Below are positions 458-16,502 of a stretch of 32,000 nt of DNA, one piece after another. Within the stretch, counting starts at the first letter, position 1. Each line of letters starts with the position of its first letter. The position numbers and the translations under genes are program-made. The DNA lies in the NCBI GenBank assembly GCA_942493095.1, contig OW818675.1:2130001-2162000 (forward strand), given 5' to 3'. The notes below the pieces were generated by a model. It was not told where the DNA came from. It saw only the letters and a list, made by a program, of their open reading frames with translations, and made no database searches. Source of the DNA: Candidatus Electronema halotolerans (GTDB lineage Bacteria; Desulfobacterota; Desulfobulbia; Desulfobulbales; Desulfobulbaceae).

Positions 458-535
458 GATAAGAACAGAGGATGCTGAAAGGTGCCGGGCTGTCCTGTTG
501 CAACAGGACGAAAGACAGTTCAGCCCGGCCTGCGC

Positions 536-787
536 TCAGGCATCCTTGAGTTTGGGTTCAAGGTAGTTGACGCAGCTTGTCAGGGTGGCAAGCTGGGGAT
601 AATCCTCTTCCGGTATCTGGAGTTTGTGGCGTTTGCGCAGCTCCATGACAATGTCGAGGAAGTCCATTGAATCAAGGTCGAGCTGGTCGCGAAGCGGCTT
701 GTCCGCGTCGAGATCGTCAAACTCGGCCTCGTCGTCTATATCTTTGATAATTTCAAGGATCAAATCCTTAATGGCATCAGGGGTCAT
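536..787 (-). CDS. acyl carrier protein (phosphopantetheine-binding)
   Basis: 83 aa, acidic, with the DLDSMD motif (Ser phosphopantetheine attachment site) at the typical position in ACP helix II. Confidence 0.85.
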   Translation of the reverse strand: MTPDAIKDLILEIIKDIDDEAEFDDLDADKPLRDQLDLDSMDFLDIVMELRKRHKLQIPEEDYPQLATLTSCVNYLEPKLKDA

Positions 788-926
788 TCTTGCTCCTCAG
801 AAAAATGCGTTGTTCATTGTTAATCATTGTAATAAATCACAATATCCTTTTTGGATAACAAAAAAAAGAAGCGATTGGGTGTAAATTCCTGATCGCTGCT
901 CAAATGGAAGCTGCCGCAGTGCGATT

Positions 927-1937
927 TCACATCAGTCCAAGCAGGAAGTTTTTCACACATTCTCCAAGAACATCAGTGTTATAACCACCTTCTTGGCATA
1001 CCAGTGTGGGTATTCCCAGGGCCTGAAACTGTTTGCCGATTGCAAAGTAATCTTCCGTGCCAAGGTTGAATCCCCCTATCGGATCCATTTCATGCGTGTC
1101 AAAACCGGCGGCAATAATAAGGTATGCAGGATTAAAAGTACGAATTTCAGAAAAAATACGATCTAATGCTGCGCTGTATTGTTCCAGTTGCGCACCTTTG
1201 GCTAAAGGCTCATTATAATTTGTTCCGACAGCCTGACCTTTGCCTCTTTCCTCGGCGTAGCCCCAAAAATACGGGTATTCATCATCAGGAGCACCATGAA
1301 CAGAGGCGGTGAATACAGATTTTATCTCATCAAAAAATTCCTGCGTTCCGTTTCCATGATGATAATCTATATCTACTATTGCCACTTTACCTTCAGGCAA
1401 CAGATACTCGGCAGCTGTAGCCACATTGTTGAAGTAGCAATAACCGCCAAACACACGGGGGCCTGCATGATGCCCGGAAGGTCTGCACAGGGCATATACC
1501 GTTTTTTCAAGGCCATCTCGAATCAATTCAGCACCTGTCAAGGCCGTTTCAGCAGAGGCCCGCGCCACTTCATAGGTTTTTCTTTTGATGGGAGTTACCG
1601 CATCAGTGCACCAAATTCCACCCCAGAGCGGTGAATCAGATTTTTTTCTAAGATGGGCGCCCTCGCCGGGAAAAAGATCAGGATAAAACTCCTCTTCATC
1701 GTTTTGCAAAGACAATGCTGTGTTCTTAATATAATCGTGATAGGGATGCAGGCGAGTGATGAATCGTTCTGGAAATGATTTTGCAGTAAGAAATTGAAAC
1801 CGCTCATCTGAACGAAGCACCTTCTTGATGGATTCAACGCGCTTTGGCGTATCTTTCACCTCGTAGGCTTCTGGTCCAAGCTGATACTTCCAATAGGGAT
1901 TATGCAGGCTGTCGTTATACTTTTCAATTACTTTCAT
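927..1937 (-). CDS. histone deacetylase-family amidohydrolase (acetylpolyamine/acetoin-utilisation type)
   Basis: Motifs PSGHHAG, GGYCYFNN, DIDYHHGNGTQ and GFDTHEMDP match the arginase/deacetylase-fold Zn site and catalytic His pair. Confidence 0.85.
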   Translation of the reverse strand: MKVIEKYNDSLHNPYWKYQLGPEAYEVKDTPKRVESIKKVLRSDERFQFLTAKSFPERFITRLHPYHDYIKNTALSLQNDEEEFYPDLFPGEGAHLRKKSDSPLWGGIWCTDAVTPIKRKTYEVARASAETALTGAELIRDGLEKTVYALCRPSGHHAGPRVFGGYCYFNNVATAAEYLLPEGKVAIVDIDYHHGNGTQEFFDEIKSVFTASVHGAPDDEYPYFWGYAEERGKGQAVGTNYNEPLAKGAQLEQYSAALDRIFSEIRTFNPAYLIIAAGFDTHEMDPIGGFNLGTEDYFAIGKQFQALGIPTLVCQEGGYNTDVLGECVKNFLLGLM

Positions 1938-4071
1938 GAATTGCTCTTCCTTTGTTTAACAGTTCGATGATTCGTTCTTGCGGAACAGGCGGGCACCAGC
2001 GCTGTCTGCGCCCATTCATTCCATTAGAGCAAAAAATGGCATTGATGACTGCCTCTTCAGTTGCTTCCACCACAGCCTCATACACCAAATTTATATGATT
2101 GTCGGAAATACATTTTAACGTTAAAAAGCTGCTGTCAGAAACGCTCTTTCGAGGCTTGCGGTTGCCTGTGCTGAAGGCAATAACAATTTCGCCACTGGTT
2201 GAAGCAGCATAAGAGCCGGTTCGGCCAAGTCCGAGAGCCGCTCGTTTGGCTACACGATTAAGCTGACTGTTGATGAGTGGTATATCAGTGGCAACAACAA
2301 CAATGATTGATCCTTCTGATACTTCCCGGCGGATATCAGGATCGAATTCCTTGTCTAATTGCTTGCCAACAACTCCTCCCTCAACAGTAAGATTGCGCAT
2401 CTTGCCAAAGTTTGACAGCACAAGCACACCTATTGTAAAGGCATTTTTTCCAGAAAGGTCCAGTATGCGTGAAGAAGTGCCTATTCCTCCGGCAAAATCA
2501 AAGCTGGTCATGCCTGCACCTGCGCCAATGGAGCCTTGCATCACTGGTCCTGATGATGCCGCCTCTATAGCCTTGATGGCATCTTGGGCCGAGCAGTATC
2601 CAACTCGTATATCGTTGAGAAAAGAATCGTCAGCTTCACCAACTACAGGCAGAACCACATCAGTTTTGGTGCCAAGATGCGGATATTTTTTCAGCATATG
2701 GTTGACAACGCCAGCATGAACCCGACCAACTGAATGCGAATTTGTAAGAAGAATAGGTGTCTCCAGCCAGCCTGTCTCAACAACTTGGGTAAGCCCAGCC
2801 ATTTCTCCAACACCATTGAGGATGAAGCCGCCAGCAGCAATCCGATTGGCATAAGCCTGGCCAGCAGGCATGATGGCGGTAACACCAGTGCGTATGGAGC
2901 TTTTTTCTGTCCCTCCGGGAATTGGAACGTCATCTTCCATCTTGGTGAAATGACCAACCCGAACACCCTTGACATCTGTGATTGCATTATGGATGCCTGG
3001 ACTCATCCGGCCAATTTGAATTCCCAGTTCTCTGGCGGCAGGCCGTGAGGTGCCTGATCTGAATCCACCTTTTTGCGGCTGCTTGATTGCAAGACCATAT
3101 CGGCGGGCGGCAGAGCGTATGATCAACCTCATGACATCTCTGAATTCAAGACCGCGTGATCTGGCAGCCGTCATAAGGGAGGCATTTGGATGCAGACTTG
3201 GCAGGGGATTAAGTTCAATAAAATATGGTTGTCCGTTTGTATTCAAGCGAATATCCACCCGGCCAAGGTCAGGGCATGACATGATGTCAAAAACTGCACG
3301 AGCCATTTTTATAACAGCTTTTTCTTCCTGTTGACTAATAGTTGCTGGACAAACGACATTGATTGCTTCTGCCCCTTTTCCCCCTTGCTTCATGTCGTAG
3401 TCATAGATATTATATTTGCCATCAATCGTATCCATGTCAAAAGTGTGTTCAACGATGTCAAGCAGCTTGCCAGGAAAGCTCTCAAGAAATGGGATGCTTA
3501 ATTCACGACCTTCTATAAATTCTTCAACCACAAGACCTGATGGATAATTTTTCAAAAGACCGTTTATTCTTTCCAGTGCCTGATCATGCGATTCAACAAC
3601 AGAATTTTGTGTAATACCTTTGCTTGATCCTTCTGAATTTGGTTTTATTATGAGCGGATATTGTAAATTATCGGGTAAATTTTTCTCCTTCTCGATAATC
3701 AACACACCTTTGGGAACGCTGATTCCGTATGATGCCAAAACAGTTTTAGCAAGATGCTTATCAAGATTAAGATGCAGCAGCGATGCATTGCCGCCGGTGA
3801 AGGGGATGCCCATCTGCTCGTACAATCCTGGGTAGAATGCCTCACGGGAACTGCCGATAGTCCCTTCTGCAAGATTAAATACAAGATCAGGCTCACTTTC
3901 AATCAGGCGTTCAATCACATCATTTGGTTTGCCTGAGACTTCAACGACTGTTACTGTGTGCTGAAGACTGCTGATGGCAGTGGATATTCTGTTAATGTCC
4001 TCTTCAGTTAAGAGTTCAGCCGTTGCTTCCGTATCATCAGTTCTAAGGTTGTAAGCTATTGTAATTCTCAT
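1924..4071 (-). CDS. fusion protein: N-terminal D-Ala-D-Ala-ligase-like ATP-grasp domain plus C-terminal DmpA/P1 (S58) aminopeptidase-like domain
   Basis: 715 aa. Residues about 1-330 look like a Ddl-type ATP-grasp (LHLNLDKHLAK..., IIKPNSEGSSKGI, RVDIRL..GQPYFIELNPLPSL). Residues about 360-715 look like DmpA/BapA (NAITDVKGVRVGH, TGVTAI, GAGAGMTSFDFAGGIGTSS). It overlaps the HDAC-like gene by 14 nt. Confidence 0.8.
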   Translation of the reverse strand: MRITIAYNLRTDDTEATAELLTEEDINRISTAISSLQHTVTVVEVSGKPNDVIERLIESEPDLVFNLAEGTIGSSREAFYPGLYEQMGIPFTGGNASLLHLNLDKHLAKTVLASYGISVPKGVLIIEKEKNLPDNLQYPLIIKPNSEGSSKGITQNSVVESHDQALERINGLLKNYPSGLVVEEFIEGRELSIPFLESFPGKLLDIVEHTFDMDTIDGKYNIYDYDMKQGGKGAEAINVVCPATISQQEEKAVIKMARAVFDIMSCPDLGRVDIRLNTNGQPYFIELNPLPSLHPNASLMTAARSRGLEFRDVMRLIIRSAARRYGLAIKQPQKGGFRSGTSRPAARELGIQIGRMSPGIHNAITDVKGVRVGHFTKMEDDVPIPGGTEKSSIRTGVTAIMPAGQAYANRIAAGGFILNGVGEMAGLTQVVETGWLETPILLTNSHSVGRVHAGVVNHMLKKYPHLGTKTDVVLPVVGEADDSFLNDIRVGYCSAQDAIKAIEAASSGPVMQGSIGAGAGMTSFDFAGGIGTSSRILDLSGKNAFTIGVLVLSNFGKMRNLTVEGGVVGKQLDKEFDPDIRREVSEGSIIVVVATDIPLINSQLNRVAKRAALGLGRTGSYAASTSGEIVIAFSTGNRKPRKSVSDSSFLTLKCISDNHINLVYEAVVEATEEAVINAIFCSNGMNGRRQRWCPPVPQERIIELLNKGRAIHESN

Positions 4072-4129
4072 TTATGACCCTCTTTGAAATGAACATTTCT
4101 TCAGCCAGTCGGGCTGATTCAAACTCCAG

Positions 4130-5377
4130 CTATTTTGCCACCACTCTCTTAACGATAAGCGTGGAATTTATTCCCAACATGCCAAAGGAGTTGTTGAGAA
4201 TGGTCTCGACGCGGGGCAGTTTCTGCGCTTCGCCGCTGACCAAGCCCGGCAGGGCGCATTCCGGGTCAAGCTGATCAAGATTGATGGTCGGATGGACCAA
4301 GCCGTCGGCAAAGGCGGGCAGATTGGCGGCCAGCTCCAGCACCCCGGCTGCGCCCATCGCATGGCCAATGATCGACTTTGTGTTATTGATCAGCAGATTC
4401 TCGCAGCCTGCAAAAACTTCGGCAATGGCCCGGCATTCCTCGACATCGCCCTGCTTGGTGCCGGTGGCGTGGGTGTTGATCAGGTCAATGTCCGCCGGAG
4501 TCATGGCCGCCCGCTCAAGGGCAAGGCGGATGCACTCGGCCTGCCGGGGGCCGTAGGGCAGGACAAAATCGCGGGCATCCGAGTTCATGGCATAACCGAC
4601 AATCTCGGCATAAATTTTCGCGCCTCTGGCCATCGCCTTGTCTAACCGCTCCAGCACAAAGACGCAGCCGCCCTCGGAAATGACAATGCCGTTCCGCTCC
4701 TGATCAAAAGGACGGCTGGCCTTGATCGGATCAGCATGTTCAGCCAAGGCGCCTTGAGCGCGGAAACTGGCAAAGATGCCAAAGGAGCCGACGCATTCGG
4801 ACAGCCCGCCGCAGAGAGCCAGATCAACCTCATCCAAGCGCAGCATCTGGCAGCCTTGAATCAGGGCGGCATTGCCTGCGGCGCAGGCCGCGCCCACCGA
4901 GTAGTGCGGCCCGGTGATGCCGAAAGTCATGGTGATCTCGCCCGCCGGATTGTTGAGCACGGTGCGCGGGTTGTGGTGGTGGGTCCAGTAATCCACATTG
5001 TGGTCATACTGGCCGATATTATAGACTTCGTTCTCAGTCTCCACCGTGCCGTGCTCAGTCAGGCCCATATAGACCCCGGTGCGCTCTGGCCGATATTGCG
5101 AGAAATCAATCCCGGCATCAGCCAAGGCCTCGCCAGTGCAATAGACACCAAGGCAGCCTGCCCGTGTGCCGCGCTTGTTCTCCCGCTTTTTCCGATACTT
5201 GGTTTCTGGGAATTCGCACAGTCCAGCAGGATGCACACCCATATAGCGCAAATCCAAGGTGGAAATGCCGCTCCGCCCGGCCAGAACCTGCTCCCGGAAC
5301 TCAGCCAAAGTGCTGGCTCCACCCGGCGCAGCCAAACCCACGCCGGTGATGACAATGCGCTGCGAATCCGACATCAT
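4130..5377 (-). CDS. beta-ketoacyl-ACP synthase (KAS I/II family)
   Basis: 415 aa. RIVITGVG N-terminus, active-site context GPHYSVGAACAAG, and His motifs NTHATGT and GHAMGAAG. The start overlaps the alaS stop (ATGA). Confidence 0.85.
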   Translation of the reverse strand: MMSDSQRIVITGVGLAAPGGASTLAEFREQVLAGRSGISTLDLRYMGVHPAGLCEFPETKYRKKRENKRGTRAGCLGVYCTGEALADAGIDFSQYRPERTGVYMGLTEHGTVETENEVYNIGQYDHNVDYWTHHHNPRTVLNNPAGEITMTFGITGPHYSVGAACAAGNAALIQGCQMLRLDEVDLALCGGLSECVGSFGIFASFRAQGALAEHADPIKASRPFDQERNGIVISEGGCVFVLERLDKAMARGAKIYAEIVGYAMNSDARDFVLPYGPRQAECIRLALERAAMTPADIDLINTHATGTKQGDVEECRAIAEVFAGCENLLINNTKSIIGHAMGAAGVLELAANLPAFADGLVHPTINLDQLDPECALPGLVSGEAQKLPRVETILNNSFGMLGINSTLIVKRVVAK

Positions 5378-8031
5378 TGGCCCGCCTCCAGTAGTTCAGC
5401 AACAATTTTTGGCATGGCCTTGACCGCCTCTGGCAGCTTGTCCGCCATTGGCCCGCCAGCTTGGGCCATGTCCGGCCTGCCGCCGCCCTTGCCGCCAACT
5501 ATGGCCGCTGCCGCCTTGACAATGTCGCCAGCCTTAATTTTACCGGTCAAATCTTTGCTGACAATTGCGAGCAGGGCCGCCTTGCCATCCACCACGCCGC
5601 CGAGCAGAGCTGCTCCGCCACCCATTTTGTCGCGCACTTTGTCGCCGACCTCGCGCAGGGTCTTGGCTGAATCGAGCTTGAGCTGACCGCTGATCACCTT
5701 GATGCCGCTGACCTCAACTGCGCCTGCCAGCAAGGAATCCAAATCAGAAGACGCTGCCGCCGCGCTCAGGGCAGCCAGCTCCTTTTCCAGCTCCTTCTGC
5801 CGCTTGAGCAGGTTTGGCACCTTGACGAGCGCATCTTCAAAGGAGCCGGAAAGCATTTTGCCCAGCTCATCGGCCTGCGCAGCCAGCTTTTGCAGCCAGT
5901 CAATCGCTGCCGGGCCAGTGACCGCCTCAATCCGGCGCACCCCAGCGGCAATGCCGGTTTCGGAAATAATCTTGAACAGGCCGATGTCGCCGGTAGCTCC
6001 GGTGTGGGTGCCGCCGCAGAGTTCCTTGGAAAAGCCGGGAATGCTCACCACCCGCACCTCGTCGCCGTATTTCTCGCCAAACAGAGCAGTTGCGCCTTCA
6101 GCAATCGCCTGCTCTTTGGCCAGCACCGCTGTTTGCACCGGCGTGTTGCGGCGGATTTCCTGATTCACAAGCTGCTCAATGGCCCGGATTTCCTCCGGCG
6201 TGACCGGCGAAAAATGGGTGAAGTCAAAGCGGAGGCGGTCAGCGCGAACTAACGAGCCTGCCTGCTTGACATGGCTGCCAAGGACTTGCTTCATGGCTGC
6301 GTGGAGCAGATGAGTGGCCGTATGATTCAAGGCTGTGGCAGTGCGCTGCTCATCCACTTGCAAGATGACTTCTTGACCAGCACTCAGCACGCCTTGCGTG
6401 ATTGTGCCGCTGTGCAGCACCAGTCCCTCGGCAGCCGCCTTGACCGAATGCACAGTCAGCTTGCCACCCGGCCATGTCATCGTGCCGCTGTCGCCGACCT
6501 GTCCGCCGGATTCAGCGTAGAACGGGGTCTGCGGACAGAAAACCTGCACTTGCGCTCCAGCGGTCGCCCGGCTGATCAAGCTGCCTTGGTTGTCGAGAAT
6601 GCCCTCAGCCACACTCTCCGCACTTCGTTGTTTATAGCCAAGAAACTCGCTTTTCTTGCCCTGCTCCAGCAGATTGATCACGCCAGCAGAGAAATGATCC
6701 AAGTCCTTAGCTTTCCACGAGCGGCGCGACTGTTCACGCTGCTCCTGCATGGCCGCTTCAAAGCCTGCGTCATCTAAACCAATGCCATGCTCCAAGGCCA
6801 CATCACGGACAATATCTTTTGGAAATCCGTAGGTGTCATAGAGTTTGAAGATGAAATCGCCGTTGATCACTGGGCGTTCAGGCTGTTCACCCAAAACCCG
6901 TTGAATTTCCTCATCCAGCATGGCCAAGCCCTTGTCCAGCGTCTCGCCAAAGCGACTCTCCTCGTGATCCGTCACCTTGTCCAAGAGCTGGCTGGAGTCA
7001 GGCAGATGCGGATACGCCTCGCGCATGGTGCGCACCACTTCCCGGCAGACCTCGCCAAAGAAGGGGCCATTCAAGCCCAGTGTCCTGCCAAAGCGGATAG
7101 CCCGGCGCATGACCCGGCGGAGCACATAGCCCCGCCCTTCATTCGAGGGCAGGACTCCGTCCGCAACCAGAAAGGCCGCAGCGCGGGCATGATCGGCAAT
7201 GACCCGCATGGCCGTGTCATCAGCACGATTCTCGTGATATTTCTTGCCGGAAAGCCGCTCCACCGTGCTGATCAGCGGGGCAAAGACATCGCTGTCAAAG
7301 TTGTTGTATTTGCCTTGCAAGACTGCCGCCACCCGCTCCACGCCCATGCCGGTGTCAATCGAAGGCTTGGGCAGCGGGGTCAAAGTGCCGTCCAAGGAGC
7401 GGTAGAACTGCATGAAGACCAGATTCCACAGCTCAAGGAAGCGGTCACAGTCGCAGCCAATGGCACATTCCGGCCTGCCGCAGCCGTGCTCCGCGCCCTG
7501 ATCAAGGTGAATCTCAGAGCAGGGGCCGCAGGGGCCGGTGTCGCCCATTGCCCAGAAATTGTCTTTCTCGCCAAGGCGGACAATGCGGCCTTTGGGCAAA
7601 TCCTCAATCTGCTCCCAGAGTTCCTGCGCCTCGTCGTCGTCGCGAAAAATCGTGATCCAAAGCCGCTCTGGGCTGATAGCCAGTTCTTTGGTCAGAAATT
7701 CCCAGGCAAAGGCGATGGCCTCTTTCTTGAAATAATCGCCAAAGGAAAAATTGCCGAGCATCTCAAAGAAGGTATGGTGCCGGGCAGTATGGCCGACGTT
7801 TTCCAAGTCGTTGTGCTTGCCGCCAGCCCGCACACAGCGTTGGCAGGAGACCGCCCGGACGTACTCGCGGTGCTCCTCGCCCATGAAAATCCGCTTGAAC
7901 TGGAACATGCCCGCGTTGGTGAAAAGCAGGGTGGGATCGTCATGCGGGACGAGCGAGGATGATTCGACGATGGTATGCCCTTTGCTGGCAAAGTAGTTGA
8001 GAAATTTTTCTCGCAGCTGATTTCCAGTCAT
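5374..8031 (-). CDS. alaS: alanine--tRNA ligase
   Basis: Full-length AlaS similarity: FTNAGMxQFK, the editing-domain HxxxH motif (HTATHLLH), CGGTH and a C-terminal DHHA1 region. I place the start at internal ATG 8031 (MTGNQLREKFL...). The upstream 37 codons of the tracked ORF run into a palindromic repeat. Confidence 0.95.
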   Translation of the reverse strand: MTGNQLREKFLNYFASKGHTIVESSSLVPHDDPTLLFTNAGMFQFKRIFMGEEHREYVRAVSCQRCVRAGGKHNDLENVGHTARHHTFFEMLGNFSFGDYFKKEAIAFAWEFLTKELAISPERLWITIFRDDDEAQELWEQIEDLPKGRIVRLGEKDNFWAMGDTGPCGPCSEIHLDQGAEHGCGRPECAIGCDCDRFLELWNLVFMQFYRSLDGTLTPLPKPSIDTGMGVERVAAVLQGKYNNFDSDVFAPLISTVERLSGKKYHENRADDTAMRVIADHARAAAFLVADGVLPSNEGRGYVLRRVMRRAIRFGRTLGLNGPFFGEVCREVVRTMREAYPHLPDSSQLLDKVTDHEESRFGETLDKGLAMLDEEIQRVLGEQPERPVINGDFIFKLYDTYGFPKDIVRDVALEHGIGLDDAGFEAAMQEQREQSRRSWKAKDLDHFSAGVINLLEQGKKSEFLGYKQRSAESVAEGILDNQGSLISRATAGAQVQVFCPQTPFYAESGGQVGDSGTMTWPGGKLTVHSVKAAAEGLVLHSGTITQGVLSAGQEVILQVDEQRTATALNHTATHLLHAAMKQVLGSHVKQAGSLVRADRLRFDFTHFSPVTPEEIRAIEQLVNQEIRRNTPVQTAVLAKEQAIAEGATALFGEKYGDEVRVVSIPGFSKELCGGTHTGATGDIGLFKIISETGIAAGVRRIEAVTGPAAIDWLQKLAAQADELGKMLSGSFEDALVKVPNLLKRQKELEKELAALSAAAASSDLDSLLAGAVEVSGIKVISGQLKLDSAKTLREVGDKVRDKMGGGAALLGGVVDGKAALLAIVSKDLTGKIKAGDIVKAAAAIVGGKGGGRPDMAQAGGPMADKLPEAVKAMPKIVAELLEAGQ

Positions 8032-8995: not shown

Positions 8996-10699
8996 ATGGA
9001 TACTTCTATAGATATTTGGAGATTAGCAGCAGGGCTGTCGGTGTTTCTCTACGGCATGTTTCTGCTGGAGGATGCTGTCAAAATCATGTCAGGCCGGGCT
9101 TTCCGCCGGATGATCCGGCTTTATACGGATGGCCGCATCCGTTCCATCGGCAGCGGCACCTTGGTCACGGCCATTCTTCAGTCCAGCTCGGCAGTCTCGC
9201 TCATGGTGCTGGCCTTTGTCGGCGGCGGCGTGATGAGCATGGAAAACGGCATCGGCGTGCTGATGGGGGCCAATATCGGCACCACCTTCACCGCGTGGAT
9301 TGTCGCCGCCTTTGGATTCAAAGTGAAGATTGAAACTCTGGCTTTTCCGGTGATAGCCTGCGCCGGACTGATCTTCGCAGTGGCCAATCCCTCCTCAAAA
9401 ATTTTTCAGGCCAGCAGACTGCTGATCGGCTTCGGCTTTCTCTTTCTTGGTCTCGATTTCATGAAAAGCAGCGTGGAGACTTTTGCCGAACATGTTGATC
9501 TGAGTGCAATTGCCGGTTACGGGGTATGGATATATCTGGTCTTTGGCACAGCCATGACCGCCCTGATGCAGGCGAGTGCCGCCGCCATCGCGGTCATTCT
9601 CACCGGCCTGTACAGCGGCCTGCTCGACTTTGAAACTTCCTTGGCTATGGTGATCGGAGCCAACATCGGCACCACAGTGACTGTGCTGCTCGGAGCCATT
9701 GGCGGCACTCCCCCGAAAAAACGGGTGGCAGCCAGTCATCTTGTCTTCAATCTGATCACCGGTGCTGTCGCCTTTGCCGCTCTCCATCCTTTGGCCGAAT
9801 TTGTCGGTCTGTTTTTCAAGATTCCTGACAACGCGGTGATGGGGCTGGCTCTTTTTCATACAATATTCAATGTAATAGGTGTCTTGATCTTTTTTCCCTT
9901 TGTCGGCCTGCTGGCCCGCTTTCTGATGCGATTTTTTCCAGACCGGAAAGAAATTCTCACCGTCTATCTTAACAATGATCCAACAGAGGTTCCAGAAGAG
10001 GGCGCGGAGGCACTGCGCAAGGAAATACTCCATCTTCTTGAGGAATGCCAGCTCTATGCGCTCAGAACCTTTGGCATTGACGACAAATTGGTTTTTGACC
10101 GCCTGCTGCCTTTTGAAAAAAATTTTGGCAAATGCACCCTGCCGGATTTTTACGACCGGGTCAAGCTCCTGCATGGTGAGATTGTTGAGTTTTATGCCAA
10201 ACTGCTCCAGGTGAATTTGGAAAAAGATGAGACCAAGGATTTGGAACGGATCATCTACGCCTCCCGCAACGTGATGAACTCTGTAAAAAATATCAAAGGA
10301 ATCCGGCATAACATCGGGGAATTTGACAGCTCGGACAACGAGCATCTGAACCAGCAGTACCGGCTTTTCCGCCGTCGGCTGATCAGCTTGTATCACCGGG
10401 TCAACAGCTTTCTGGTCCTGAAGGATCAGGAGAAGCAGCACCAGAGCCTGCTGAAAATGGCCATGCAGATTGAAGAGGAGGACAAGCGGTTTGTCAGCAC
10501 CGTCATGAAGCTGGCAGCGGAAAAAAACATCCATGAGCTGGAAATCTCCTCCCTGCTCATGGCCAACCGTCTCTTCAGCCAGTCCTGCCGTCTCCAAGTC
10601 TTTGCCCTCAAGGACCTGCTGCTCAAGGAAAAAGAAATCAGCGACTTTGACCGGGCTATGGATGCCAAAGAAACGCCGCAGGAGGCACAGGGAAAATGA
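8996..10699 (+). CDS. Na+/phosphate cotransporter family protein (NptA-like with C-terminal PhoU-like helices)
   Basis: Duplicated motif (A)ILQSSSA...GANIGTT appears at both halves, with multiple TM segments. The start is placed at MDTSIDIW (ATG 8996). Confidence 0.85.
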   Translation: MDTSIDIWRLAAGLSVFLYGMFLLEDAVKIMSGRAFRRMIRLYTDGRIRSIGSGTLVTAILQSSSAVSLMVLAFVGGGVMSMENGIGVLMGANIGTTFTAWIVAAFGFKVKIETLAFPVIACAGLIFAVANPSSKIFQASRLLIGFGFLFLGLDFMKSSVETFAEHVDLSAIAGYGVWIYLVFGTAMTALMQASAAAIAVILTGLYSGLLDFETSLAMVIGANIGTTVTVLLGAIGGTPPKKRVAASHLVFNLITGAVAFAALHPLAEFVGLFFKIPDNAVMGLALFHTIFNVIGVLIFFPFVGLLARFLMRFFPDRKEILTVYLNNDPTEVPEEGAEALRKEILHLLEECQLYALRTFGIDDKLVFDRLLPFEKNFGKCTLPDFYDRVKLLHGEIVEFYAKLLQVNLEKDETKDLERIIYASRNVMNSVKNIKGIRHNIGEFDSSDNEHLNQQYRLFRRRLISLYHRVNSFLVLKDQEKQHQSLLKMAMQIEEEDKRFVSTVMKLAAEKNIHELEISSLLMANRLFSQSCRLQVFALKDLLLKEKEISDFDRAMDAKETPQEAQGK

Positions 10700-12055: not shown

Positions 12056-12843
12056 GTATCCATGCAGCATTTTTTGTACTTCTTCCCACTGCCGCAGGGA
12101 CAGGCATCGTTTCTGCCGATCTTGCGCTGGCCTCCCTTCTTTTTTTTCTCAGGGGCAAAATAATCAGCAAGCGAGAAACGAGGCGGGGGCGTGGAGCGTT
12201 TTTCCCGCAGGCCCAAATCCATTTCCACGTCCTCCAGATCACCATGAATGCTCACGTCAACGCAGTTTTCCTGATACGCCTGCTGAATGACCGGCATGGC
12301 CTCGACTGCCTTGAGATCGATCAGGCAGCTGATGAGCAATCCGTTGAATGTCGGGTCATTTTTTGCATACTGGGTCAGCGGTCGTTCTATGCGGTTGATG
12401 CAGTTCTGCCGGAGTTCAGGATGCTGCTGCGCCATAGCGACCAGCCCTTCCGCTATTGAGGTCCTTGAATACATGGGATGCTTTTCATCCGCAAGATAGT
12501 GCGCCATCGGACGGAAGGCAGGCTGACCGATCATGGCTAATGCTTTTGGTATATCCTCTTGCGCCCACTCGTCCTCCTCGTCCAGATCGAACCGCTCCAG
12601 CAGCGGCTGCACCGTCTCCGCCGCCCGAAGATTGCCAAGAATCCGCCAGGCATAAACTGGCGCATAGACGGTATCGTCTTCAGTATTTGCCCAGTTCAGT
12701 TTTTCATCCACAATCATGCGGAGCAGTTCCGGCAGATGCTCTTGGGTGATGCCCAGTTCGTTGTACTTGCTCCATTCATCACGTGGGTTCGGCCTGCCCA
12801 AGGTCAGCAGGGCGGCAACCGGTTCGGTGTATTGCGTGTCCAT
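12052..12843 (-). CDS. SEC-C metal-binding motif protein (DUF1186-like)
   Basis: C-terminal NDACPCGSGKKYKKCC is the SEC-C motif. The N-terminal alpha-helical body is recalled as DUF1186-like. The ATG at 12843 is preferred over the TTG at 12858. Confidence 0.7.
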   Translation of the reverse strand: MDTQYTEPVAALLTLGRPNPRDEWSKYNELGITQEHLPELLRMIVDEKLNWANTEDDTVYAPVYAWRILGNLRAAETVQPLLERFDLDEEDEWAQEDIPKALAMIGQPAFRPMAHYLADEKHPMYSRTSIAEGLVAMAQQHPELRQNCINRIERPLTQYAKNDPTFNGLLISCLIDLKAVEAMPVIQQAYQENCVDVSIHGDLEDVEMDLGLREKRSTPPPRFSLADYFAPEKKKKGGQRKIGRNDACPCGSGKKYKKCCMDT

Positions 12844-12870
12844 AGTTTTTTTTTGCAAAAATTGGCTGAA

Positions 12871-13197
12871 TTAACATCTTGGCTGCATGAGTTTCTCAAC
12901 CAGCCTGTAAACAGTTGTGCCAGCAGTTTTTGGCCAGGCCGGGCATGGAGGCGTGTCGCGCAGTTTGGCCCGCTGAACGGCTTGGCTGATTCTGTCTTGG
13001 GTGAATTTTCGGGTATCAATTCCTTTATCGTAATCCGGGAGATACTGCCTCAAACGCTCTGAACATTGCGCCGAAGATTGAACGCCTTTTGCCTCGTCAA
13101 AGTGCAGGAACAGCCAAAACAACAGAGAAGAGGTCGGGAGCAGAATCAGGCGAGACAAATTTAAGCGTATCCTTGAACGCATAGGCTGTACGGCCAT
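12871..13197 (-). CDS. hypothetical ORF or gene remnant at the island border
   Basis: Only an open frame with no recognisable motifs. The upstream part of the tracked ORF overlaps the next gene. It sits exactly where base composition changes. Confidence 0.2.
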   Translation of the reverse strand: MAVQPMRSRIRLNLSRLILLPTSSLLFWLFLHFDEAKGVQSSAQCSERLRQYLPDYDKGIDTRKFTQDRISQAVQRAKLRDTPPCPAWPKTAGTTVYRLVEKLMQPRC

Positions 13198-13264
13198 GCC
13201 AGACCCAATTTTTATGCGGGATATGAAACTGCGGTGCGCGTGCATGGTCAGCACCAACCCTTTG

Positions 13265-14377
13265 TTATACAGCCTTTCGATATTTAGCGAATTCTTCTTG
13301 AATAATCGCTTCAACCTGCTTTATCCCGCCATGAAAAATATCAATCTGTTGCTCCTTCATTTTGTCCAAAATATTGGCAAGTACATTTTTGTCATGTATC
13401 ATCATGCTATATTCTGAAAATTTTCGATTCTCAAAAATTTCCACATTGGTGGCTTTACGGAAAATATAAAAGACTATTGTTTTTTCGATTACTTCCCTCA
13501 AAGTCTGGTCATCAATAAACGTGTACATTATAAGAACTAAATAGCGAAAAGTGATACCAAATCGTATGTATGGAATGATCCTCAGATATAGACATATCAA
13601 CAAAACATCCATAATCTGAGATACCCATGAATATAAGGCGATAAGAAATATCTGCGGTTCTGACTGCTCCTTCGCCAGCACCAAGAAATTCATTTGGGTG
13701 TTACAATGTCGCTCCAATTTCTCTCTCAGAGACATGTCTTCGCTGTCGTCTTCATTAAAGACTAACTTTTGGGATACATAGGGGAGCATTGCATTCTCGA
13801 TCTGTTCGAACGTCTCGTACTGATGGCAAAAATCATCCTGACTGGTAAACTCTTTATCGAATGAACTTGAAAGGAAATTGAGAAAAAATTTTCCAAGTAG
13901 TTCGTGACGTTCTTCCTCGTCTTTTACTGAGAGTTGCCGAATAGGCAATATAAAGAAAGTATTCTGGTAATGCGTTAAAATCTCTATCGTATCAGAAAAC
14001 ACTCGATTGAAATATTCGATTGTTTCCGTACTGTCAACCCTATCTTCTTGGCTTCTAAAAAATTGTTCTATCTTTAGAAATGGGTCGAAAAGCAAATGAT
14101 AATCGCCGAGTGATTTGAAATAAAAGTGTTCATAGTCGGATATGTTTAAATATATCGCACCGCATAACACAAAACATGAGTTAGTTTCGGTTAATTCTTC
14201 AAGCTCAAAATAAATTACGTCGAGTCGTTCTAACCAGAAGAATTTCACTTCATCTAAAAACAGTGCTATTGTCCTAAAGGTTATCCCATCCGTTCGAAAT
14301 ACGTTTTCAAAATCAGCGATTAGCTCCTGATACTCCGCTTGAAATCTTTGAATGTTCTCAGGATATTGAATAGCCAT
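13265..14377 (-). CDS. hypothetical protein (370 aa), no recognisable family
   Basis: Long uninterrupted ORF in AT-rich DNA, where random stops are frequent. It overlaps the upstream ORF by 20 nt. The C-terminal third has hydrophobic stretches (IFLIALYSWVSQIMDVLLICLYLRIIPYIRF). Confidence 0.6.
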   Translation of the reverse strand: MAIQYPENIQRFQAEYQELIADFENVFRTDGITFRTIALFLDEVKFFWLERLDVIYFELEELTETNSCFVLCGAIYLNISDYEHFYFKSLGDYHLLFDPFLKIEQFFRSQEDRVDSTETIEYFNRVFSDTIEILTHYQNTFFILPIRQLSVKDEEERHELLGKFFLNFLSSSFDKEFTSQDDFCHQYETFEQIENAMLPYVSQKLVFNEDDSEDMSLREKLERHCNTQMNFLVLAKEQSEPQIFLIALYSWVSQIMDVLLICLYLRIIPYIRFGITFRYLVLIMYTFIDDQTLREVIEKTIVFYIFRKATNVEIFENRKFSEYSMMIHDKNVLANILDKMKEQQIDIFHGGIKQVEAIIQEEFAKYRKAV

Positions 14378-15836
14378 TTTTTAGTTCCTTTGGTACGTTA
14401 TAGATGCCAGTCAATAAGGAAAGCAGTTTCTGCATTGTTTTAAAACTGTCGGCTTTTACATCTGGGAGTTCTTGATTTGAATTAATGTCTGGAATTGCAT
14501 GATATTGATGAGCAGCATTATCACAGTGCACCATAGCACTCTCTCTAACCGCCCCCCATAGACCATGAGCAAAACTGGAATCATAATCATAAAAAAGATC
14601 GAACAGTTCTTTTTCATCGGCTTCTATACTTTTTTCTCTTATTCCATGCTTGTCAAAGTACTTCAAGTCAACATCTATAAACTCTTCCCATCGAATCTCA
14701 TTAACTAACGCATCGACTATTAGAGGAATAAAATGCGCAGTGTTGTCTAAATCGGTTTCACGGGCTTTTAGTAAAATCAGTTTATATTTACTAATACCAT
14801 AGAGTTTATATTCCTCCCATATGTCGTGATTTGAGACTTCTCGTTTGAGGAGGTATTTGAGTATAATTAATATTTCAATAATAGTTCTAACTCCGTGACG
14901 ACCAAGAATACTATTACCCAGTGATTTCTCTGTTAGTTCAATAAAGATTTTTAGTGCATAAGTGATCGACCCCACAATGACATCAAACTTGTCTTCAGCA
15001 AGAGATTTTTCCTTGTTTGAGTGAATAATATATTCCAAAGTTTTTTGAAATTGTCTGATAAAATCTTTGTAGGTGTATTTATTTTGGTCAAAAACTATGC
15101 TTACAGGCTTACATGAAGTTATCATGCCAATATCTATCCAGAATTGTTTACAAAAATCGTTGTTGTTATTTTCTAAAGTCCCACTATATCCACCTTCCAT
15201 ACTTCTAATAGCTGGTCGATACTTCCTCATCTTTTCATCACTATGCTCTGTGTATGGATATTCTTTTAATGCTTCGATTGTCATCGTGAGACCTTTCGCA
15301 ACCCGGAGTTTATCACTAAATATTAAAAAACTTAACGATAAAAACCTTAGATCGGTTGTTTCATCTGATCCTGATGAGAAATATATTTCAATAGCTCTCA
15401 ATAGATATTTAATTCTACTCTCAAACCCAAATTGTGGGATATTGAAAAAATCATTAAACACTGGATATGTCAAAGGGCGATACAAGACTGTTAATGGCGA
15501 GAGAACTTTCTTGTCTATAATTGTTGAAACTATTGTAAAGAGAGTATGTTGGTCTTCATCTGAAAGCCCAAAAACCATAGACAGCCGAGGATGGGGTAAA
15601 TTATGCACTTTTTTTGATATATCCAGCAATACTCTACCGGCTTTCTCAAGCCCTTCTTCTCTACCATAATAAAGCAAAATCAGGCCTAACCAGAGATATT
15701 CTGGCATCCTTTCCTTGCCCCAAGAACTTAGAGTTAGCTGATCGCGAAGCCTATCATTGAGAGGAGTTGCTACAATTCCTTGCTTTTTATGCAAACGATG
15801 CTCACTCAAACGACTCACATCTTTTCTTCTCTTCAT
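14358..15836 (-). CDS. hypothetical protein (492 aa); C-terminal helical region faintly reminiscent of DUF5677-type proteins
   Basis: Long ORF in AT-rich DNA with no P-loop, nuclease or other catalytic motif that I can recognise. The DUF5677 resemblance (RTIIEILIILKYLLK ... YDYDSSFAHGLWGAV) is from memory and unverified. Confidence 0.6.
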   Translation of the reverse strand: MKRRKDVSRLSEHRLHKKQGIVATPLNDRLRDQLTLSSWGKERMPEYLWLGLILLYYGREEGLEKAGRVLLDISKKVHNLPHPRLSMVFGLSDEDQHTLFTIVSTIIDKKVLSPLTVLYRPLTYPVFNDFFNIPQFGFESRIKYLLRAIEIYFSSGSDETTDLRFLSLSFLIFSDKLRVAKGLTMTIEALKEYPYTEHSDEKMRKYRPAIRSMEGGYSGTLENNNNDFCKQFWIDIGMITSCKPVSIVFDQNKYTYKDFIRQFQKTLEYIIHSNKEKSLAEDKFDVIVGSITYALKIFIELTEKSLGNSILGRHGVRTIIEILIILKYLLKREVSNHDIWEEYKLYGISKYKLILLKARETDLDNTAHFIPLIVDALVNEIRWEEFIDVDLKYFDKHGIREKSIEADEKELFDLFYDYDSSFAHGLWGAVRESAMVHCDNAAHQYHAIPDINSNQELPDVKADSFKTMQKLLSLLTGIYNVPKELKNGYSIS

Positions 15837-15941
15837 TCTGCAAACAGTCCTTAAATGTTAAAAGATTATGTTGATTGCTGTATAACCAAAGATACACCGG
15901 TCTAAATGCGGCACTTATCAATTAAATCAAGTAGCTGATGA

Positions 15942-16502
15942 TCATTGTTCTGTCTCCGTCCCCTGACAACGCAAATAAGCAGCCTGCAACACCAGAGGGA
16001 AGTTGAAGCGCTCTTCCGGCTTGCCCCATTCCGCATAGCCCATGCTGACCCAGCCGCCCTGATTGATCCAGTCCTCGTAGCCGAATTTCCAGCCCTCCCA
16101 GTCATCCTGACAGCTGTAGGGCTGGTCCGGGCCGTAATAGATAAAACGCATCCCATCCTCATCCTTGGATAGACGGGTTCTGCCGATCAGGAGCATGTCT
16201 GCGCCGTAAAAGGCTGCCTCTTGCTCCGCCGCTTGGGCGATGCTCAGGCCGGTGGCTCCTGTCGGAGTCCAGATCAGCAGATGCGCAAAGACCTTGCAGC
16301 CGGGCTGGGCCTGCTCGGCCTGAAAAATCGTCCGCGCCTGACCGGTCGATGGGTAGGTGAAAGCCGGGCTGATTTGCTGCTTGGGCACCAAGGGCATTTT
16401 CTCCCAGACCTCCTTTGCTTTTTCTTTGACCGAGCAGCCGGAGAGCAGGGAAAGAGCTGCTACCAGCAGCAGCAGGGGCTTGCGCATTCTGCCTGTGATC
16501 AT
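15942..16502 (-). CDS. lipoprotein, function unknown
   Basis: Signal peptide with lipobox LLSGC (MRKPLLLLVAALSLLSGC). GGAG lies upstream of the ATG at 16502. Confidence 0.7.
   Translation of the reverse strand: MITGRMRKPLLLLVAALSLLSGCSVKEKAKEVWEKMPLVPKQQISPAFTYPSTGQARTIFQAEQAQPGCKVFAHLLIWTPTGATGLSIAQAAEQEAAFYGADMLLIGRTRLSKDEDGMRFIYYGPDQPYSCQDDWEGWKFGYEDWINQGGWVSMGYAEWGKPEERFNFPLVLQAAYLRCQGTETEQ

Follow-up and report, generated by a model that had tools for sequence, protein, structure and literature searches.

The question raised by the DNA analysed here, a 32,000-nucleotide (nt) stretch of the genome of Candidatus Electronema halotolerans (contig OW818675.1, positions 2,130,001 to 2,162,000; hereafter, the window), is what an AT-rich island of two long open reading frames (ORFs) is doing among genes of otherwise ordinary composition. 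A preliminary description, made from the sequence alone, had placed this island at 13198–15900 and had put it forward as a candidate acquired defence module. Based on the results of profile searches, alignments with published proteins and comparison with a syntenic relative, it is likely, with a probability that we put at roughly 0.8, that the island is an intact, horizontally acquired operon of the anti-phage system Aditi (ditA–ditB), lodged in the Candidatus Electronema halotolerans chromosome at a variable slot that is flanked by two core genes. The locus is a further copy of a known family, and not a new kind of system.

Searches against PADLOC-DB revealed that the larger product of the island, a protein of 492 amino acids (aa), matches DitA (PDLC03826; E-value, 3.4e-176; 584.9 bits) over positions 3–482 of the 486 in the profile, and that the smaller one, of 370 aa, matches DitB (PDLC03827; E-value, 2.5e-98; 327.2 bits) over positions 7–357 of 361. 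A PADLOC run was among the checks that the preliminary description had proposed, and the DitA/DitB identity which it returned supports the earlier view of a compact, compositionally foreign and co-translated pair of the defence or abortive-infection type. Pfam analysis identified a DUF5677 domain in the window DitA (E-value, 1.1e-12; aa 300–433), in agreement with the likeness to this family that had been perceived in the larger protein. No Pfam family was found in the window DitB, nor in any of 37 DitB members, and NCBIfam gave no match for either protein of the window. The remark that neither product carries an assignable motif therefore stands for classical catalytic motifs; it does not stand for function, since the Aditi family was named, and one of its members verified, in 2022. 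In the public record, proteins identical to those of the window are entered as hypothetical proteins of Candidatus Electronema halotolerans, a member of the Desulfobulbaceae (GCAAIG_09465 and GCAAIG_09460).

Aditi, which consists of DitA and DitB, is a published anti-phage defence system (Millman et al., 2022). In the supplementary tables of that study, where the sequences and the DitA and DitB gene identifiers are given, the construct from Saccharibacillus kuerlensis DSM 22868 is marked as showing defence, and for the construct from Bacillus simplex RUG2-6 (SG144) no defence is recorded as observed. The window pair resembles that of S. kuerlensis in gene order and strand, in its DUF5677-bearing DitA, in protein size (492 and 370 aa here, 483 and 372 aa there), and in the collinear alignment of both proteins. 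In BLASTP comparisons, the window DitA shares 35% identity with S. kuerlensis DitA (E-value, 1e-78), collinear over all 399 residues available, and the window DitB shares 23% identity with its S. kuerlensis counterpart (E-value, 1e-32; 363 columns). Thus, the failure of alignment with the verified DitA and DitB that would have spoken against the assignment was not seen. The two loci differ in their low identity, in the host, which belongs to the Bacillota in one case and is a cable bacterium of the Desulfobulbaceae in the other, and in the 20-nt overlap of the window genes. The B. simplex candidate has the same architecture, and its DitB is closer to that of the window (32% identity; E-value, 2e-69), so that its lack of protection in the published assay is a caveat for function in this branch. 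Taken together, these identities place the window pair as a clear but divergent member of the family, nearer to the branch in which no defence was observed.

The base composition of the island is consistent with a foreign origin. In 500-nt bins, the G–C content (GC) falls to 0.32–0.41 within 13001–16000, compared with 0.53–0.60 on either side, which corresponds to the sharp drop over about 2.7 kb reported earlier. The refined unit (13264–15886), whose borders lie within about 70 nt of those first proposed, has a GC of 0.356 (35.6%), and the core genes to its left and right have 0.556 and 0.584, respectively. The ditA gene (14358–15836, minus strand) encodes the 492-aa protein, in which the C-terminal DUF5677 domain is preceded by an N-terminal domain outside any Pfam family, and ditB (13265–14377, minus strand) encodes the 370-aa protein; both reading frames are free of internal stops. 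According to the ORF coordinates, the 3' end of ditA overlaps the 5' end of ditB by 20 nt (14358–14377, minus strand), exactly as first described, and this overlap probably reflects translational coupling. In other loci, the junction varies from a 3-nt gap to a 56-nt overlap, with ORFs called from the first in-frame start codon. The Rfam scan of 12500–16500 gave no match at E-values up to 1, and the promoter and terminator scans found sites no more numerous than in shuffled sequence.

These data also bear on the possibility that the two genes are ordinary lineage-specific or housekeeping genes with incidentally low GC, or that they are chance ORFs. Apart from the housekeeping character of the neighbours, nothing positive speaks for this explanation. 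The longest stop-free run in the island is 499 codons, whereas in 500 shuffled sequences it averaged 89 and reached 198 at most, which bears out the earlier judgement that ORFs of such length are improbable by chance. The GC at third codon positions is 0.30 in ditA and 0.39 in ditB, as against 0.63–0.72 in six neighbouring genes, and both proteins have hundreds of homologues. With the further evidence from the insertion site and from a distant relative given below, the probability of this explanation is close to negligible.

The insertion site was examined by comparison with contig L018 (JGI metagenome 3300040792), whose flanks are 86–89% identical to those of the window. Homology to this relative ends at 12853 and resumes at 15963, so that the entire variable segment between the conserved core genes spans 12854–15962, with a SEC-C/DUF1186 gene on the left and a 186-aa gene on the right. 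Of the flanking genes, L018 retains FolC, a 128-aa gene, a TPMT-like methyltransferase gene and an orthologue of the 186-aa gene on one side of the slot, and the SEC-C/DUF1186 gene on the opposite one. The Aditi pair is absent from this site in L018, a finding which argues against the pair being ordinary housekeeping genes, and its place is taken by 3.5 kb of other cargo (3282–6801) coding for a 919-aa NACHT/NNH1 protein, a 108-aa protein and a TumE-family protein. The NACHT protein is a weak match to PADLOC candidate PDC-S60, and the pair of 108-aa and TumE-family genes a weak match to candidate PDC-M44A/B. The same-site comparison suggested in the preliminary description therefore uncovered a relative with other, partly defence-like cargo.

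Next to ditB, the window retains the 3' fragment of an RloB/AbiLii-like gene (12889–13119, minus strand, inside an ORF at 12871–13314). The match to Pfam RloB (E-value, 1.1e-11) covers only positions 111–195 of the 195 in the profile, PADLOC AbiLii is matched with an E-value of 7e-5, and the GC of the fragment (0.52) is intermediate between those of the cassette and the core. AbiL/RloB-type systems combine an AAA ATPase with an RloB/Toprim-like protein. The window shares with them the RloB-like fragment, but this holds only the last ~85 profile positions, and no ATPase ORF is present within 12854–15962. The interpretation of the island as a system of this type was therefore rejected, the fragment being partial and no AAA ATPase gene adjacent. 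Probably, an earlier defence system was displaced by the Aditi cassette and left this fragment behind, which is no part of the working system. The different cargo in L018, together with the RloB fragment in the window, indicates that the slot is a hot spot with turnover of cargo.

Core-genome defence hot spots, that is, variable slots between conserved genes, have been described for Pseudomonas and Escherichia coli. The present slot is similar in that conserved flanks (FolC, the TPMT-like methyltransferase gene and the 175/186-aa gene on one side; SEC-C and QueH on the other) enclose alternative cargo. It differs in the number of states that were seen, which is limited to two occupied ones, namely Aditi in the window and the NACHT gene with the PDC-M44-like pair in L018. 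No empty site was detected; in the closest SEC-C relatives (L016 and L017; 89%), the upstream context is rearranged. Neither a tRNA gene nor a recombinase or integrase gene was detected in the window, including at the borders of the slot. In a more distant contig (L021; SEC-C 67% identical), a Lamassu-like pair consisting of a Cap4 nuclease and an SMC-type ATPase (12878–15711) is encoded ~3.5 kb downstream of QueH, which places a further defence system close to the same block of conserved genes.

Several observations weigh against the view that the island is a working Aditi operon. No large defence island surrounds the pair: with the exception of the RloB fragment, its neighbours in the window are housekeeping genes (QueH, FolC, the TPMT-like methyltransferase and AlaRS). 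As described above, the identity of the window pair to the verified one is low (35% for DitA and 23% for DitB), and the B. simplex pair is closer to it. Finally, protection from phages by the window pair is a prediction by homology to the one verified member. The B. simplex negative itself carries little weight, as it comes from a single heterologous host and a limited panel of phages.

The distribution of the family was explored in two ways. An exhaustive profile search returned 340 clusters (50% identity) at E-values up to 1e-30 and 1174 at E-values up to 1e-3; its best 150 matches, considered below, are DitA-like proteins only. A scan of species-representative genomes provided 14 loci, from Vecturithrix, Bdellovibrionales, Chloroflexia, Babeliaceae, Priestia, Bacillus, Fredinandcohnia, Neobacillus, Veillonella, Lachnospiraceae, Pontiellaceae and unclassified metagenome-assembled genomes (MAGs). 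In 13 of these 14 loci, DitB is located immediately downstream of DitA and in the same order, which answers in the positive the earlier question of whether the two genes co-occur, and does so for unrelated phyla. The exception is a Babeliaceae MAG (L005, 2353–3589), in which DitA is frameshifted and DitB has no match; an assembly error is possible. In a Chloroflexia MAG (L004, 10001–12576), both Aditi genes are split into several ORFs and look decayed, where again an assembly error is possible. The span matched by DitA and DitB is more AT-rich (0.28–0.41) than the rest of the locus in all of the 14 loci, so that the AT-richness noted for the island recurs whatever the composition of the host. 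Among 50,697 phage records, no DitA match was found. Plasmid records yielded only two, and the one that was inspected looks chromosomal (rlmH, DnaD).

The extent of the transferred unit emerges from the Vecturithrix locus (L001). Comparison by blastn revealed 78.8% nucleotide identity over 2629 bp, from 15886 to 13264 of the window, and such identity to a locus of a distant lineage is hard to reconcile with ordinary lineage-specific genes. The shared stretch begins 50 nt before the ditA start and ends with the first base after the ditB stop; no similarity is seen beyond either end. Accordingly, the transferred unit consists of a 50-nt leader (15837–15886, minus strand), which is kept in L001 and travels with the cassette, followed by ditA and ditB; it is 2.6 kb long and has sharp borders. 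The ratios of nonsynonymous to synonymous substitution (dN/dS) relative to L001 are 0.10 for DitA and 0.08 for DitB, third codon positions differing most, and hence both genes are under purifying selection. DitB diverges faster than DitA: its identity to the window protein is 74% compared with 80% for DitA in L001, 30–33% compared with 41–44% in the Bacillota, and 24–25% compared with 32–33% in Veillonella.

Both ends of the cassette carry an inverted repeat. On the ditA sense strand of the window, its 5' arm is TTGGTTATACAGC (15877–15889) and its 3' arm, which overlaps the ditB stop codon, is GCTGTATAACAAA (13261–13273), with 12 of 13 positions paired. The corresponding arms in L001, CGTTATACAGT and ACTGTATAACG (about 9950–9960 and 12563–12573), pair at 11 of 11 positions. 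The repeat occupies the same positions in the two loci, which differ by one compensatory base change. The core of the 3' arm, CTGTATAAC, is found in L001 as well as in two further loci, L031 and L032; the 5' arm is absent from L032, and L031 is truncated at its 5' end. Several other Aditi loci have no such inverted repeat, and no target-site duplications were seen on inspection of the cassette ends. The terminal inverted repeat may be an element of mobility or of RNA pairing, or it may have arisen by chance. The two further loci are close relatives of the window pair (DitA identity, 70–79%). In L032 (1417–3240), the Aditi genes adjoin a GmrSD type IV restriction gene; in L031 (9071–9817), they adjoin an rve-family transposase gene, and the first ~234 nt of ditA are missing together with the leader.

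Such a minimal 2.6-kb cassette that moves between phyla could also be a selfish module of the addiction or toxin-antitoxin kind, or a system directed against plasmids or other mobile elements, which has spread horizontally and provides its host with no protection from phages. The compact two-gene operon with overlapping frames would suit this explanation, as would the transposase, integrase and toxin-antitoxin genes that adjoin relatives, and the fact that, of the two Aditi pairs which Millman et al. (2022) assayed, the one from B. simplex, with the DitB nearer to the window's, showed no defence. However, the S. kuerlensis pair did give defence, and the B. simplex negative, coming from a single heterologous host, says little. 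A type II toxin-antitoxin pair in the strict sense was rejected: the proteins are large (492 and 370 aa), and neither a DNA-binding antitoxin domain nor a known toxin family was detected in them by Pfam, NCBIfam or PADLOC. The dN/dS of about 0.1 shows that both proteins are under selection, yet it does not separate the two ideas. On balance, a selfish or anti-plasmid role is considered unlikely.

AlphaFold2 models were built on family alignments. The DitA model (predicted local distance difference test score, pLDDT, 87.6) is all-alpha, with about 28 helices, and that of DitB (pLDDT, 89.8; predicted template modelling score, 0.87) forms a single compact unit, mostly helical with four short strands. 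Foldseek comparison with the PDB gave best E-values of 0.59 for DitA and 0.28 for DitB; the best E-value for DitB against BFVD was 0.32, and profile searches of PDB sequences gave no match for either protein. Matches of DitB to HUP-class Rossmann enzymes (PanC, TyrRS and GMP synthase) had Foldseek probabilities of 0.13 at most and were not trusted. The two proteins are not paralogues according to hhalign (probability, 0.1%). In DitA, 40 positions are invariant among 55 sequences, and the DUF5677 half contains an invariant polar cluster formed by E300, R313, R317, E321, K327, E380, E385, K402, H424, W427, G428, R431, E432, C438 and H443. In DitB, 10 positions are invariant among 49 sequences (Q13, F47, W48, L77, G91, D129, Q254, P269, R272 and Y279).

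Several functional assignments of the individual proteins were tried and rejected. The sequence RESAMVH of DitA (R431-x5-H437) recalls HEPN RNases, but position 437 varies across 43 DitA sequences. As this Rx5H motif is not conserved in the family, DitA is not a HEPN protein; HEPN families gave no match at E-values up to 5 in the 43 members. Matches of DitA to LanC-like proteins (PF05147), which are alpha/alpha toroids with a Cys/Cys/His zinc site, were below threshold, occurred in 7 of the 43 sequences (best E-value, 0.024), and had no LanC-type Foldseek match in the PDB. The preliminary description had read the C-terminal third of the smaller protein as hydrophobic and possibly membrane-associated. 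The hydrophobic helix in question (aa 243–265) reaches a 19-residue Kyte–Doolittle maximum of 1.96 in the window, but of 1.49 in S. kuerlensis and 1.32 in B. simplex; it stays below 1.6 in 11 of 37 aligned members and lies at 1.18–1.48 in 7 of 12 divergent ones from the collected loci. Since the helix is below the usual transmembrane threshold in the verified protein and in many others, the idea of DitB as a membrane-inserted Abi effector was abandoned as a feature of the family, and a buried core helix is more likely.

Clues to a division of labour between the two proteins come from DitA-like proteins of unusual length. Four of the best 150 DitA relatives are at least 681 aa long, compared with about 490 aa for DitA. 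One of them, P0384 (701 aa), is DitA-like over residues 9–489 and ends in a C-terminal domain that is recognized as HEPN_AbiV (42.6 bits; cut-off, 27.1) and in which the Rx4H motif is intact (RRFKDH). The protein is encoded on four contigs (L023–L026, of one NCBI assembly and three Logan assemblies), the gene being located at 6001–8106 of L023. In L023 and L026, with flanks of up to 6 kb on each side, a DitB hidden Markov model gave no match at E-values up to 0.01, whereas canonical loci score 268–551 bits; the gene tables of L024 and L025 list the same downstream genes as L023 and L026. Nearby genes for an archaeal-type AdoMet synthase and TrmB suggest that the host is archaeal. AbiV of Lactococcus is an abortive-infection system of a single protein (HEPN_AbiV, PF18728). 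P0384 is like it in carrying this domain with the Rx4H motif, and the window differs from it in that neither DitA nor DitB has a HEPN domain; the comparison of DitA with the AbiV domain of P0384 by hhalign gave a probability of 0.2%. Judged from its domains, the P0384 fusion would associate the DitA module with RNase effectors of the Abi type.

A second long protein, P0383 (681 aa; contigs L027 and L028, gene at 6001–8046 of L027), combines a DitA-like part with a C-terminal extension of ~200 aa and is likewise found without DitB. Its neighbours include HigB, Peptidase_M78, an integrase and a serine recombinase, and a 192-aa gene downstream shows HEPN_RiboL-PSP below threshold (E-value, 0.003). 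By inspection, the extension appears PD-(D/E)xK-like (SDIVIID...TIVEIKL), a lead to which Pfam and PDB sequence searches lent no support. An unfused DitA-like protein of the same divergent clade, P0386 (493 aa), stands alone among toxin-antitoxin genes without DitB. Two other observations on DitA-like sequences were made. P0370 (538 aa), which came from the representative search, is a chimera: its first ~300 aa resemble a Type IIG restriction-methyltransferase (PADLOC E-value, 6e-39), and its last ~230 aa the C-terminal half of DitA; it is possibly a product of recombination or insertion inside a defence island. In L029, the gene upstream of a stand-alone DitA-like gene (3513–4976) is interrupted by 10 in-frame stops when read with table 11, and translation of the DitA-like gene fails to reproduce the query; an alternative genetic code is probably used on this contig, where a small terminase gene is located nearby.

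Because DitA-like proteins fused to a HEPN_AbiV RNase occur in loci without DitB, it may tentatively be proposed, as the simplest reading, that DitA is the conserved core of the system and DitB its effector. DitA would sense infection or regulate the response, and DitB would act under its control, leading to growth arrest or to abortive infection. The faster evolution of DitB (10 invariant residues compared with 40 in DitA) is in favour of this model. In its wider form, which we hold with similarly low confidence, DitA could be the constant core of a broader defence family with interchangeable effectors (DitB, the fused HEPN_AbiV RNase and, possibly, the fused PD-(D/E)xK-like nuclease), DitB could be an effector whose fold is absent from the PDB, and the 2.6-kb ditAB cassette may be a unit that is bounded by short terminal inverted repeats and moves between phyla. 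A number of findings count against such a division of roles. Invariant charged and polar residues, as one would expect them in an enzyme, are dense in DitA and not in DitB. The unfused P0386 is found without any DitB, so that the DitA module may be self-sufficient. Just one fusion, that of P0384, passes a curated threshold, the PD-(D/E)xK reading of P0383 having no Pfam support. Moreover, with about 210–240 bits to the DitA profile, the fused proteins form part of a divergent clade, which makes extrapolation to canonical Aditi uncertain.

The roles may also be the opposite ones. DitA would then be the enzyme or effector, with the polar cluster of its DUF5677 half as an active or metal-binding site, and DitB a sensor, a specificity subunit or an antitoxin-like inhibitor that restrains DitA until infection. 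Many of the 40 invariant DitA positions are charged or His/Cys, about half of the 10 in DitB are aromatic, aliphatic, Gly or Pro, and, from a reading of the alignment, the H424/C438/H443/H446 pattern of DitA could bind metal. The faster divergence of DitB in L001, the Bacillota and Veillonella, and the stand-alone DitA-like genes, also fit this arrangement. Nevertheless, no enzyme fold is linked to DitA by Pfam, by Foldseek comparison with the PDB or by profile search of PDB sequences; the HEPN motif (Rx4–6H) is not conserved, H437 being variable; the LanC-like matches are weak and have no structural support; and the HEPN_AbiV fusion with the absence of DitB is simpler to explain if the DitA module is not the effector. 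This arrangement, too, is possible but doubtful. Since each of the two models receives only a minor part of the probability, what remains falls to something not yet imagined.

Two other parts of the window have a deviating composition. A second stretch of lowered GC (501–4000; 0.42–0.50, compared with about 0.58) encodes a histone-deacetylase-family protein (927–1937) and a 715-aa fusion of a D-Ala-D-Ala-ligase-like ATP-grasp domain with a peptidase S58 domain (1924–4071); it has no PADLOC match and is possibly another acquired segment. Between 23001 and 26000, the GC is raised (0.62–0.67), and several long ORFs overlap on both strands.

Standard tools (PADLOC and DefenseFinder) would have flagged this locus. 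As for the family, Aditi is one of the few published systems without a domain assignment or known mechanism, and its mechanism or domain assignment is still given as unknown in reviews and surveys of 2024–2026. The experimental handles that emerge, namely confident folds without a PDB neighbour, the invariant polar cluster of DitA and the HEPN_AbiV fusions found without DitB, concern Aditi in general and not the window specifically. For the cable bacterium, two products recorded as hypothetical proteins can be attributed to a named anti-phage system, and the slot flanked by the 186-aa and SEC-C genes is recognized as a hot spot of defence genes in this lineage.

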